Source of the DNA: Chloroflexota bacterium
GTDB lineage: Bacteria; Chloroflexota; UBA4733
Reading direction: 5' to 3'
NCBI GenBank assembly: GCA_036734945.1
Contig: DAIMXP010000023.1
Coordinates: 1-64,000 of the forward strand
Length of the DNA stretch: 64,000 nucleotides
In this document: piece by piece, positions 24,840 through 33,500 of the stretch
Layout of the letters: the number at the start of each line of letters is the position of its first letter
Numbering within the stretch: the stretch's first letter is position 1
The notes under the pieces: generated by a model
What the model was told of the DNA's origin: nothing
Seen by the model: the letters and a program-made list of their open reading frames with translations, nothing else
The model's database searches: none
Translations under genes and position numbers: made by a program

Positions 24840-25688
24840 TCAGCGATGGTCCTTCGCCATGGTCCGCTCCGCCGCTTGGCGCATCACGTCGATTGGCGCC
24901 GGCTGGCCGGTCCAAAGTTGGAACGATTCCGCGCCCTGATAGACGAGCATCGGCAGACCGCCGAGCACGCGAGCGCCGGCCTGGCGAGCCTCCCGCATGA
25001 GGCGGGTCTCCAGGGGATTGGCGACCAGATCAAATACCAGGGCATTGGCAGCCAGGAGCGGCTCGGGCAACGGCGTGGCATCCACGCCTGCGCCGAGCAT
25101 GCCGGCGGGTGTCGCGTTCACCACGAGCGGCGCCTCCGCCAGGACGGCCTGAAACTCCAGGCTATGCCAAGCGAGCACAGTAACGCGATCATTGCCCAGA
25201 GCGGCGGCGAGGTCATCGGCGCGCCGGCGATGGTGGTTAGCGAGCCACAGTCGCCCGACGCCGGCTCCGAGCAGCGCCACGGCGACAGCGCGGGCGGCGC
25301 CACCGGCGCCGAGCAACAGCACGTCCGCCCCGACGGGATCGAAGCCTCCATCGTCCCGCAGCGCCCGTAAGAACCCTCCTACATCGGTGTTATAGCCAGC
25401 CAGTTGCCCGTCCTCGTTGACGAGCGTATTGCTTGCCCCTATTTGCTCCACCAGTGGGTCACGGCGCGCCAGGTAGGGCAACACGGCCAGCTTGTAGGGA
25501 ATGGTGACGTTGCTCCCCAGCGCATCCGGCTGGGTCAGCCGCGCCAGGTGAACGGCCAGCGCCTCCGGCGCCAGTTCCCAGGCGTGGTAGTACACATCCA
25601 GTCCCAGCGTGTCAAAGGCGGCCTGTTGAAAGACTGCGGAGATGGAGTGGCGAAGCGACTGGCCGATGACGCCGCAGACGCGCGTCAC
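24840..25688 (-). CDS. aroE: Shikimate dehydrogenase
   Basis: GVIGQSLRHSIS, NVTIPYK and NTLVNEDGQLAGYNTDVGGF motifs. Confidence 0.8.
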   Translation of the reverse strand: MTRVCGVIGQSLRHSISAVFQQAAFDTLGLDVYYHAWELAPEALAVHLARLTQPDALGSNVTIPYKLAVLPYLARRDPLVEQIGASNTLVNEDGQLAGYNTDVGGFLRALRDDGGFDPVGADVLLLGAGGAARAVAVALLGAGVGRLWLANHHRRRADDLAAALGNDRVTVLAWHSLEFQAVLAEAPLVVNATPAGMLGAGVDATPLPEPLLAANALVFDLVANPLETRLMREARQAGARVLGGLPMLVYQGAESFQLWTGQPAPIDVMRQAAERTMAKDHR

Positions 25689-26023
25689 GGTCGGCGCGAG
25701 CTGCGGAATAGCGACTGGAAGTTACCGTCGAAGGCAGCCAGGTACTCGTGCATCGCCAGGACATCCTCGGTCTCTACCGGCCCATCCACGTTCGGCAACC
25801 CTTCGTCAAAGGGGTCGGCCAGGCAGTGGTGCAGGCGGGTCAGCAAATCGCCGGTGAAGCACACACGGTTGGCAATCGCGCCGCACCCTTCACAGTGCGT
25901 GGCAATCACGGCCGTGGCCGTGCGGCGACTCAGCACGCGCAACAGGTGCAAGCGTTCGCCGCACTGGGGGCAGCCTGACGATGCCAGGCACTGCTCGATC
26001 GCCCCGTCCAGCCCGTCGTCCAC
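25685..26023 (-). CDS. Hypothetical zinc-ribbon protein
   Basis: CPQCG...CEGCG pairs. Sits between aroE and pheA with a 4-nt overlap. Confidence 0.35.
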   Translation of the reverse strand: MDDGLDGAIEQCLASSGCPQCGERLHLLRVLSRRTATAVIATHCEGCGAIANRVCFTGDLLTRLHHCLADPFDEGLPNVDGPVETEDVLAMHEYLAAFDGNFQSLFRSSRRP

Positions 26024-27586: not shown

Positions 27587-29127
27587 GTGGCAGACCTCCA
27601 AGCGGTCGGGATCGACCTCGGCACAACCTACTCGTCGGTAGCGATCGTCGATGCCCAGGGCAACGTCCAGCTTATCCCTAACGCCGAGTCCGAACGGTTG
27701 ACGCCGTCGGCTGTCTACTTCGATGACGACTCCATCGTGGTGGGTCAGATTGCCAAGGATAAGGCGGCCAGCGACCCCGATCGGGCGGTGCTCTTTGTCA
27801 AACGCCAGATGGGCAGCCTCCATTGGCTCTTCGGCCACGAGGACCAGCGCTACTCCCCAACCGATGTCTCCGCCATCATCCTGGCAAAGCTCAAGCGGGA
27901 CGCCGAACAGTACCTCAATCGTCCCCTTCCCTACGCCGTCATCACGTGCCTGCCTATTTCGATGACGACCGGCGACGGGCCACCATTGCGGCCGGGGAGC
28001 TAGCGGGCTTCAAGGTGCTTGATCTGGTCAACGAGCCAACCGCTGCGGCGGTCGCCTTCGGCGTGGAACGCAGCACACAGGACGAGACGGTGCTGGTCTA
28101 CGACCTCGGAGGGGGGACGTTCGACGTCACGCTCATGCATGTGGCGGGCAAGCAGATTCGGATCATCGGGACGGATGGAGATCATCAGCTCGGCGGTAAA
28201 GATTTCGACGACGCCATAATGGTGTACGCCGTTGAGGCCTTTCAACGCGAACACGGCTTCGATCCGTCCATTGACCCCTTTGTGGCGGCGGAGTTGCGCG
28301 GTCAAGCTGAACGAGCCAAACGGGAACTGAGCAAGCTGACCAAGGCATCCCTGGCTGTGCGCGCTCAAGGCAAAAGTACGCGCGCTGTGCTTTCCCGCGA
28401 ACAGTTCGAGGCGCTGATCAAGCCAAAGCTGGATACGACACTGGCGCTGGTACGCACGGTCATCACGGAGGCGAAAGTAGCACCCGGACAGGTGGACCGT
28501 GTGCTTCTCATCGGCGGCTCGACGCGCGTGCCGGCGGTGGCCCAGGCACTGGAGCGCTACTTCGGCAAGGCTCCCGATGCTTCCGTGAACCCGGATGAGG
28601 CAGTGGCGCTGGGAGCCGCGCTCATGGCCGCGCGGAAAATGGTCGACGCAGCCCCGTTGGAGGCGCCCCCGAAGGTGATCGAGAAGGTGGGTGGACTGGA
28701 AGTCACCGACGTCTCCGCGCACAGCCTCGGCATCGAAGCCTTCGTTCCCGGCACCAGTCAGCGCCTCAATAGCATCCTGATCCCCCGGAACAGCCCGATC
28801 CCCACGGAAGTCTCGCGCGAGTTCGTGACCGCCCTTCCCGGTCAGACCGCGATCAAGGTCACGATCTATCAAGGTGAATTTCCAGACCCCAACCTCTGTA
28901 ACCCCATCGGGGAGTTCACGCTCACGGGTCTGCCAGCGAACCGTTCGGCAGGACAGAAGGTAAGGGTGACGGTTTCCTGCGGAACCAGCGGTGTGGTGAA
29001 CGTGACTGCACTCGACATCGCCACGGGTCACCAGACTGCCACCGAGGTGAGTTACCGTGGCGACAAGGGTGGCGAAGCCAAGAAGAGCGCCCGAGACCGC
29101 TGGAAGACGGCGAAGCCGATCGTCTGA
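27587..29127 (+). pseudogene. Hsp70-family protein lacking the C-terminal lid, interrupted by a -1 frameshift near 27946
   Basis: N-terminus AVGIDLGTTYSSVAIV. The frame switches after AVIT (expected AVITVPAYF; the sequence atcac|gtgcct lacks 1 nt). The downstream frame reads VPAYFDDDRRRATIAAGELAGFKVLDLVNEPTAAAVAFG. Confidence 0.7.
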
Positions 29128-29193: not shown

Positions 29194-30456
29194 ATGCCGA
29201 ACAATCGCCACCTGGTGAACGACTTCGATATCCTCCGGCCGACGCAACTCCTCGAACGTGGCCTGCCCCTGCCGGGGTTGGACGGCCGTCACATTGTGGA
29301 ACATGGCTGGTGCTGCATCATCACCATCGACGGCGTCTACCAGGAGACGCTGGGGCCAGGTAAACACCACCTCGGTCGCTACCCCTTCTTCGGCAACGTC
29401 AAGGCCACCGCCGTCGATACGCGCATCAAGACGCTCACAATCTCTACCACCCGCGAGTTCACCATCGAGAAGCCCGTGCCGGTAGAGATCAACCTGGATC
29501 TGGCCGTCGAGTATCAGGTGAAGGATGCCCGCCGCGTCGTCCTCGAAGTCGGCCAACCGCTCACCGGACTGTACGACCGGGTGATTCAGGCAGTGCGCGG
29601 CGCCGTCGTCTTTGCGACCGTGGAAGACATCCGCCGTCAGGGTGAGACGATCGCCCAGATGACGCTGCAACGCCTGCAAGCAATGCAGCTCCCAAAGATT
29701 CTCGGCATTGAGGTCTTCACGATACTCGTCAACTCAATCAAGGCGACGGACGCCGGGAACGATGCGCTGGCCGCCCGCCAGATGGAGGAGTACACGCGGG
29801 TGCGCGACTGGCAACTCGATTCGCAAATGCTGTCCCAGTCGCAGATGACGCCGGAGTGGATGCTCATGCATCGACCGGAAGTGTACGCCCAGATGATGGC
29901 CGGCAACCAGGCCCTCATGAAGGAGTTGATCGAACGAGGCATGCTTGACCCGGCCGCCGTTCTGAGCCGACCGGTCGGCGCTACGTACGTTGATCCGCAG
30001 TCTATGCTGGCTGCCTTGACGGGCGGCGCGGCCTCGGCGTTCGGCGGCGTCCCGAGTCTTGGGTCCGGCATCCCCGCGACACACGGCTCTCCGCAGTTGC
30101 CCGAAGCCTTGCCGGGCAGTAGCCAGGCCGCGGCAGGAGGCGACATCATGGCGCGAATGCGCGAGGATATCCGCTACCTCCAGGCGCTGCCGGGAGTGGT
30201 GGTAGAGACCAAGCCCGGCATTGACGACCTCGGCGTGCCCGACGGCTCCTACGACGTGCAGGTGCAACTGCCGCGCAGCTCGGGCGGACGTCTCCAACTG
30301 TACGTGATGTGCCCACGGGGCTACCCACAGCAACCGCCGACCGTCGAACTGGACCTGGACGATCAGCCCACCCCCTTCCAGTCGGCCATCCTGCGGCGCT
30401 GGACCGGGCAGTATCTCGTGGAGATCGCCCGCGAAGCCAAGCAATACTGGGGGTGA
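29194..30456 (+). CDS. SPFH/band-7-like domain protein with a C-terminal E2/RWD/UEV-like (YPxxPP) module
   Basis: SPFH-like block YQETLGPGKHHLGRYPFFGNVKATAVDTRIKTLTISTT...GIEVFTILVNSIKATD. The C-terminus LQLYVMCPRGYPQQPPTVEL resembles the UBC/RWD YPxxPP signature. Confidence 0.5.
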   Translation: MPNNRHLVNDFDILRPTQLLERGLPLPGLDGRHIVEHGWCCIITIDGVYQETLGPGKHHLGRYPFFGNVKATAVDTRIKTLTISTTREFTIEKPVPVEINLDLAVEYQVKDARRVVLEVGQPLTGLYDRVIQAVRGAVVFATVEDIRRQGETIAQMTLQRLQAMQLPKILGIEVFTILVNSIKATDAGNDALAARQMEEYTRVRDWQLDSQMLSQSQMTPEWMLMHRPEVYAQMMAGNQALMKELIERGMLDPAAVLSRPVGATYVDPQSMLAALTGGAASAFGGVPSLGSGIPATHGSPQLPEALPGSSQAAAGGDIMARMREDIRYLQALPGVVVETKPGIDDLGVPDGSYDVQVQLPRSSGGRLQLYVMCPRGYPQQPPTVELDLDDQPTPFQSAILRRWTGQYLVEIAREAKQYWG

Positions 30457-32944: not shown

Positions 32945-33005
32945 GATTCTGGGGTGTGACGCAAAGTAGTACGCAGCAAGCGAACGACGTGAGTACCAAA
33001 GAGCA

Positions 33006-33500
33006 CAGGGCCGCGATTGCGGGCCCAGAGGGCGCCCCCGGCCAAGTTACCGGGGCGACTGCGGTCGCTTGGGTGGGGGAGGACGGTTGGGGGCAAGGGA
33101 CGTTCGATGGGTTGGGAACAGGGCCGCGATTGCGATCGGCGGCCAAGGACGGAGGGCGACTGCGGTCGCTTGGGTGGGGACCGACGGTTGGAAAAGGCGA
33201 AAGATTGGTTCATCTTGAACAGGGCCGCGATTGCGATCGACGGCCAAGTGACGAGGGCGACTGCGGTCGCTTGGGTGGGGACCGACGGTTGCATATTCAC
33301 AGCGCCTCGGCCCCTGCTCCCCTTCACCATTCCTTGCCTCCCGCAACCGTCCTTACCCTGTCAAGCGACCGCAGTCGCCCCCGTCACTTGGCCGCCGATC
33401 GCAATCGCGGCCCTGTACTCCCCCACCCACCTTCCCGCAGCCTCCCCCAACCGCACTCCCCCGGCCAAGCGACCGCAGTCGCCGCCCTGCGATCTCCCTA
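33006..33500. repeat. Family-B REP/BIME-like cluster with three direct and two inverted copies of a roughly 50-75 bp unit (GGGCCGCGATTGCGATCGGCGGCCAAGTGACGGGGGCGACTGCGGTCGCTTGG)
   Basis: Units were read directly from the sequence. Each holds two hairpins (GGCCGC..GCGGCC and GCGAC-TGCG-GTCGC). The same unit recurs at 37.8 and 55.2 kb. Confidence 0.7.

Follow-up and report, generated by a model that had tools for sequence, protein, structure and literature searches.

An interrupted Hsp70 gene and its neighborhood

The DNA analyzed here is a 64,000-nucleotide stretch of a Chloroflexota contig (the window; G+C content, 65%), whose forward strand carries an Hsp70 gene distributed over two reading frames and, downstream of it, genes for an SPFH/Band 7 protein, two J-domain or J-like proteins, a TPR-like protein, and a large P-loop ATPase (Table 1). 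The upstream open reading frame (ORF) of the Hsp70 gene, at positions 27587 to 28003, encodes 138 amino acids (aa). It begins as a normal Hsp70 N terminus (MADLQAVGIDLGTTYS...), which is maintained up to ...NRPLPYAVIT and is followed by 18 out-of-frame codons. The continuation expected of an Hsp70 after YAVIT (VPAYFDDDRRRATIAAGELAGFKVLDLVNEPTAAA...) is found one frame back, from the GTG codon at position 27946. The ORF in this neighboring frame extends from 27823 to the stop at 29127 and reads VPAYFDDDRRRATIAAGE... from GTG 27946 onward, with no further stops in the downstream 393 codons.

The addition of any single nucleotide after position 27945 (ATC AC|GTG CCT) yields one ORF of 513 codons with 0 internal stops, the product of which is referred to below as the repaired protein. 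When the repaired protein was compared to the window with tblastn, residues 1 to 121 were matched in frame 2 and residues 121 to 513 in frame 1. Homologous genes read ATC/ATT ACN GTN CCN at the junction; exactly one base is therefore gone, either from the Thr codon or from the ACG-GTG junction. The recovery of a 513-aa ORF by a single-base insertion bears out the original prediction that the frame changes after YAVIT, resumes with VPAYFDDD in the next frame, and is one base short near position 27946.

Table 1. Features of the Hsp70 gene and the adjoining gene cluster, in window coordinates
Feature	Position	Strand	Remarks
Hsp70 N-terminal coding segment, aa 1-119 plus two bases of Thr120	27587..27945	+	GTG start; GGAGG 11 nt upstream
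Frameshift junction ATCAC|GTGCCT	27941..27951	+	One base absent between 27945 and 27946 relative to the listed homologs
Out-of-frame tail of the upstream ORF, CLPISMTTGDGPPLRPGS	27946..28003	+	TAG at 28001-28003
Hsp70 C-terminal coding segment, aa 121-513	27946..29127	+	Rest of the NBD, linker, beta-sandwich SBD, 25-aa tail, and stop; without alpha-helical lid
Hsp70 C-terminal tail	29052-29124	+	Ends in the family motif SA[KR]xxWxxx[KQ]P[IV][VE]-COOH
SPFH/Band 7 protein, 420 aa	29194..30456	+	Conserved neighbor of the lidless Hsp70
Degenerate J-like domain (no HPD), double zinc ribbon, C-terminal transmembrane anchor, 245 aa	30466..31203	+	
Zinc ribbon, transmembrane segment, TPR-like protein, 246 aa	31200..31940	+	Conserved cluster member
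J-domain protein, HHD for HPD, double zinc ribbon, two transmembrane segments, 314 aa	32000..32944	+	
Distant HerA/FtsK-superfamily P-loop ATPase, 998 aa	33550..36546	+	Conserved together with the cluster; 66% identity to its L011 counterpart

The repaired protein belongs to a family of lidless Hsp70s

The repaired protein matches the Pfam HSP70 profile (PF00012) with an E value of 1.1e-130. Among the features of the Hsp70 superfamily, the nucleotide-binding domain (NBD) with its catalytic residues and the beta-sandwich substrate-binding domain (SBD) after the linker are present, and the lid is absent. More than 100 homologs (∼120 listed) were found at 54 to 73% identity; they measure 510 to 534 aa and are uninterrupted, with the exception of two fragments on 1.4-kb contigs. 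Where the source of a match was named, it was an Anaerolineae, Anaerolineaceae, or Chloroflexota metagenome-assembled genome (MAG), apart from one short contig binned as Proteobacteria, and the annotations of the homologs go no further than "Hsp70 family protein" or "molecular chaperone DnaK." A scan of GTDB genomes by protein returned only three members of the family (L016 to L018), the remaining matches being ordinary DnaKs. A scan of viral contigs returned only canonical Hsp70s, at ≤40% identity, and no family member, and thus indicates no viral link. Residues D10, K72, E150, D173, and T178 are invariant in an alignment of 37 family sequences and are present in the repaired protein.

The extent of the C-terminal region was assessed with profiles and a structural model. 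The Pfam HSP70 profile is matched only to position 498 of 599 and the NCBIfam DnaK model to position 494 of 625, and the alignment to Escherichia coli DnaK breaks off at residue 519, having reached into helix A. In an AlphaFold model of the repaired protein, for which the family alignment served as input (pLDDT, 85.8; pTM, 0.83), the strands of the beta-sandwich SBD span residues 372 to 488, the last of them residues 483 to 488. What follows is a tail of 25 aa, with a disordered stretch (residues 491 to 504) and one 9-residue helix (residues 498 to 506), that ends at residue 513. The model resembles ATP-state DnaK/BiP with a query TM score of 0.81 to 0.83, and the Foldseek target TM score is ∼0.80 for lid-truncated constructs versus ∼0.70 for full-length proteins. 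Alignment to Hsp70 profiles, which stops well before the end of both, thus confirms the absence of a lid that had been read from the sequence, and the earlier estimate that the protein ends about 30 aa after the beta-SBD is close to the 25 aa of the model.

The lidless architecture had also been described as unusual. This is correct as far as the absence of the lid is concerned, but the feature is shared by the whole family of 510- to 534-aa proteins, all of them lidless. All family members end ∼25 aa after the beta-sandwich and carry the C-terminal motif SA[KR]xxWxxx[KQ]P[IV][VE]. Since all of them stop at the same place with a conserved motif, the lidless state is an old, selected trait of the family rather than a truncation at this locus.

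The interrupted allele in other assemblies

The one-base-short junction was present in 10/10 further public contigs that were fetched (L001 to L010), all of which match the window at 100% identity over the length of the Hsp70 gene; the ten contigs are clonal, perhaps derive from one site, and may in part be reassemblies of the same runs or reads. They comprise an NCBI third-party MAG (GCA_036805165.1), three ENA assemblies (ERZ27248586, ERZ27248663, and ERZ27248645), a Logan assembly of SRR1586266, and contigs from five JGI samples (3300013772, 3300001535, 3300039203, 3300011991, and 3300012005). An intact allele was not found in a collection of 15 billion proteins (5.8 billion clusters searched), in which the best full-length match was 73% identical. 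The two clusters with exact matches contained only the 138-aa and 393-aa pieces and fragments of these, and the two pieces (P0125/P0126 and P0001, respectively) are separate gene calls in public collections. Scans of metagenome and genome contigs for the junction pattern, with or without the extra base, gave no match, while the pattern does match the window; the allele counts were therefore taken from exact-protein look-ups.

The only differences between the window and the ten contigs are an N-gap and changes in a small ORF ∼2 kb upstream of the Hsp70 gene. This ORF (positions 25685 to 26023, minus strand) encodes 112 aa, with no function assigned. Two tight clusters of six substitutions each, mostly synonymous, lie at positions 25860 to 25945, one covering 45 bp in L001 and the other covering 22 bp in L002. 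The clusters may represent strain mixing or a recombination patch.

Origin of the interruption

Three origins of the interruption had been proposed at the outset, namely, a recent pseudogene, a programmed frameshift, and an assembly error. If the interruption were an artifact, the organism would possess an intact 513-aa gene from which one base was lost in consensus building, during either sequencing or assembly. Single-base indels are a frequent error class of draft assemblies, and the copies, being 100% identical throughout, could in some cases go back to shared reads. However, the identical allele was produced by different pipelines (NCBI third-party MAG, ENA, Logan, and JGI) from no fewer than five JGI samples, three ENA assembly records, and a single SRA run; no homopolymer is present at the site (ATCACGTGCC); an intact version is missing from the protein collection; and none of the other adjacent ORF pairs tested in the window (overlapping pairs on the same strand) proved to be a split gene. 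The recurrence in ten contigs and the lack of an intact allele in the protein collection exclude a one-off assembly error, a platform-systematic loss of a base is very unlikely at this non-homopolymer site, and the probability that we assign to an artifact of any kind is accordingly slight. Recoding would leave the DNA sequence correct: full-length chaperone would be supplied at some regulated level by a programmed −1 ribosomal frameshift at ATC ACG|TG or by a different kind of recoding there. The shift that is needed is indeed −1, with the G of ACG being re-read as part of GTG to give the exact homologous sequence ...ITVPAYF..., and the downstream 393 codons are perfectly kept. Against this, neither an X XXY YYZ slippery heptamer nor a homopolymer of ≥5 occurs anywhere in the frame overlap (positions 27760 to 28003), tRNA re-pairing from AUC-ACG to CAU-CAC is impossible, and the RNA downstream of the junction (positions 27950 to 28040; minimum free energy, −28.7 kcal/mol) is no better folded than shuffled sequences (z = +0.30). 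Recoding sites are usually conserved, yet none of the ∼120 listed homologs, including the nearest relatives at 70 to 73% identity, has a frameshift at the junction. Together with the lack of a Shine-Dalgarno sequence before GTG 27946, these observations make a programmed frameshift very unlikely, and we attach next to no weight to recoding as an explanation.

It is also conceivable that the gene is functional in its split form, with the 138-aa piece and a 393-aa piece initiated at GTG 27946 reassembling into an active ATPase. A GTG codon does lie exactly at the junction, where it is used by gene callers (P0001 and P0121), but it is not preceded by a purine-rich Shine-Dalgarno sequence, whereas the Hsp70 start and most of the neighboring genes have one. 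Moreover, the break falls within a buried beta-strand of the ATPase core (E116-121 in the AlphaFold model), the N-terminal piece bears 18 foreign residues, and no split homolog is present among those listed, all of which renders a functional split gene quite unlikely. Of the origins proposed at the outset, the recent pseudogene is the one favored, as the ORF is broken relative to intact homologs, the break is reproducible in other data, and no recoding signal was detected; the programmed frameshift and the assembly error fare poorly against the lack of recoding signals and the ten-contig allele. We consider it probable, from the sequence comparisons, that the interruption is a genuine, fixed one-base deletion in a specialized, naturally lidless Hsp70 paralog and that the gene is most likely a young pseudogene.

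As a pseudogene, the locus would have arisen in an uncultured Anaerolineae population by a deletion at the Thr120/Val121 codons, within the stretch that encodes the conserved AVITVPAYF strand. Translation from the normal start ends after 138 aa, 120 of them native and 18 out of frame, with most of the ATPase fold missing, and the downstream 393 codons lack a ribosome-binding site of their own. We infer from these features that function has been lost and that the loss was recent; the otherwise intact gene and operon would, however, also be expected of a gene whose expression continues by an unrecognized route.

The lesion appears to be young because the repaired protein retains all family-invariant residues of the 37-sequence alignment, deviates from the family at few conserved positions, and is accompanied by downstream partner genes that are full length and align end to end with their homologs. 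Deviations were seen at 7 of the 160 columns that are conserved at ≥94% (six conservative replacements and one R-to-L replacement), compared to a range of 0 to 18 within the family. The branch leading to the repaired protein exceeds those of its nearest relatives only marginally in length (0.431 versus 0.405 to 0.418). Taken as tests for relaxed selection, neither the conserved columns nor the relative rates gave a signal in either direction. Measured against the divergence of the lineage, the deletion thus seems recent; since all sampled copies are identical and the population is clonal, it cannot be dated more closely.

A conserved gene cluster accompanies the lidless Hsp70

The gene set downstream of the Hsp70 gene (Table 1) is found in the same order beside the Hsp70 genes of L013, L014/L015, and L016, and the J-proteins and the ATPase are also present in L011. 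The J-protein encoded upstream of the ATPase gene has 1 to 6 paralogs in related loci. The HHD J-proteins of the window and of L011, L013, L014, and L016 share a conserved WRRLVTH[H/P]D sequence, with two paralogs keeping HPD, and in the J-like type encoded directly after the SPFH gene, the motif has been lost altogether. The 998-aa ATPase misses all curated cutoffs and includes an N-terminal region of ∼420 aa without a Pfam match. In a PADLOC search, it alone gave weak matches, to HerA/mad8 models (the best being mad8, at 2e-13), and no defense-system match was obtained for the Hsp70, SPFH, or J proteins. Variable proteins of 660 to 695 aa, encoded beside the Hsp70 genes of L011 and L014, were considered as core components and rejected, having no counterpart in the window.

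Two further observations concern the cluster. The C-terminal ∼110 aa of the SPFH protein (positions ∼30120 to 30456) give a weak, subthreshold match to the RWD (UBC-like) domain (E = 0.0037; 17.9 bits versus a threshold of 22.8); an SPFH-RWD fusion, if present, would be unusual. The second J-protein gene and the ATPase gene are separated by a repeat-rich spacer of 600 bp, in which positions 32990 to 33490 hold five copies of an element of ∼75 nt at a spacing of ∼101 nt. Three of the copies are direct and two are inverted, and each contains the palindromic core GGCGACTGCGGTCGCC, an arrangement that resembles REP or MITE elements. No Rfam match was obtained between positions 26000 and 38000, the spacer repeats included.

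Relationship to known Hsp70 systems

Among the known systems compared, the best sequence match is the DnaK of Geobacillus kaustophilus (PDB 2v7y), which is of the Gram-positive type (E = 1e-100). The repaired protein has its beta-sandwich and its NBD, all catalytic residues included, in common with canonical DnaK; it differs in the lack of the SBD-alpha lid, in an insertion of ∼5 aa in loop L1,2, and in the absence of grpE or dnaJ adjoining its gene. An insertion of ∼10 aa also precedes a modified linker (LEVTD versus VLLLD in DnaK). The cutoffs of the DnaK equivalog models are missed by a wide margin (TIGR02350, 406.9 bits versus 822.55; NF001413, 415.4 bits versus 648), as is that of HscA (TIGR01991, 370.7 bits versus 708.55). 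Hsp70 residue D146 (positions 28022 to 28024) occupies the place of DnaK R167, which contacts the aspartate of the J-domain HPD motif, and this position is D, G, K, or E across the family. Such variation is consistent with an altered Hsp70/J-domain interface.

A parallel in gene organization is offered by E. coli HscC, a specialized Hsp70 that is encoded beside its own membrane-anchored J-proteins, DjlB and DjlC; this pairing has been proposed to function at the plasma membrane (PMC8215388). Loop L1,2 of the HscC beta-sandwich likewise contains an insertion, and in the alignment to the repaired protein only a one-residue gap occurs there. However, HscC, a protein of 550 to 580 aa, has a lid that is shortened but present, whereas here the lid is wholly absent, and the partners encoded here have zinc ribbons and the HHD motif and are joined by an SPFH protein and a HerA/FtsK-like ATPase. 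The repaired protein is 36% identical to HscC over 428 aa, and its score against HscC (241 bits) is lower than that against DnaK (341 bits); thus, the lidless Hsp70 is not closer to HscC.

Many bacterial paralogs derived from DnaK have shortened or deleted lids, with functions that are unknown according to reviews (PMC13580251). The DnaK derivates of Myxococcus and Anaeromyxobacter, which similarly miss part of the SBD, fall into the same general category, but they are heterogeneous (PMC13580251), whereas the family described here is a tight Anaerolineae clade (54 to 73% identity) in which both the C-terminal motif and the synteny are conserved. The same domain content is found in engineered lid-truncated Hsp70s (Mycoplasma genitalium DnaK delta-SBD-alpha, 5obu; BiP, 7a4u), which are laboratory constructs; the present proteins are natural and bear a conserved tail in place of the lid. 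Hsp70-like NBD/SBD units also occur in GTPase-centered (PMC7159879) and CoCoNuT (PMC11090510) conflict systems, the architectures of which differ from that seen here. In the open-access full-text literature, we found no description of the Anaerolineae lidless Hsp70 clade or of its gene cluster.

A possible membrane-associated Hsp70 module

The composition of the cluster suggests what the intact protein might do in the relatives of the interrupted lineage. It is probably a dedicated Hsp70 that is recruited to the membrane by the HHD-bearing, membrane-anchored J-proteins of the operon and that would act there near an SPFH scaffold, alongside the HerA/FtsK-like ATPase. Clients would be bound with fast on/off kinetics, given that the missing lid normally slows the release of peptides (PMC8215388). 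The change at the R167 position and the change in the HPD motif suggest that the Hsp70 and its J-proteins form a private pair. Docking between EEVD and TPR is familiar from eukaryotes, and one may speculate, by analogy, that the conserved C-terminal tail docks onto the TPR-like protein of the operon. Under the broadest reading, the lidless Hsp70 would be the core of an undescribed Anaerolineae module, composed of the lidless Hsp70, an SPFH protein ending in an RWD-like region, arrays of membrane-anchored HHD zinc-ribbon J-proteins, the zinc-ribbon/TPR protein, and the HerA/FtsK-like ATPase; associated with the membrane, this module would form an Hsp70 machine complete in itself and kept apart from DnaK/DnaJ. 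We put this proposal forward tentatively and regard it as somewhat more doubtful than not. Were it true, the window would represent a natural knockout of the motor of the module in a clonal environmental population.

Taken alone, the lesion is an ordinary one-base inactivation in one uncultured lineage; greater, if modest, interest attaches to the conserved cluster around the lidless Hsp70 as a lead. The family provides natural Hsp70s that are lidless, keep the catalytic residues, and have their own C-terminal motif and their own unusual J-proteins. It could thus serve as a test case for the role of the lid and for the specificity of Hsp70/J-protein pairs, questions that belong to the "dark matter" of bacterial chaperone networks (PMC13580251). 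For annotation, the locus calls for caution, as public gene calls display the broken gene as two "DnaK" proteins.
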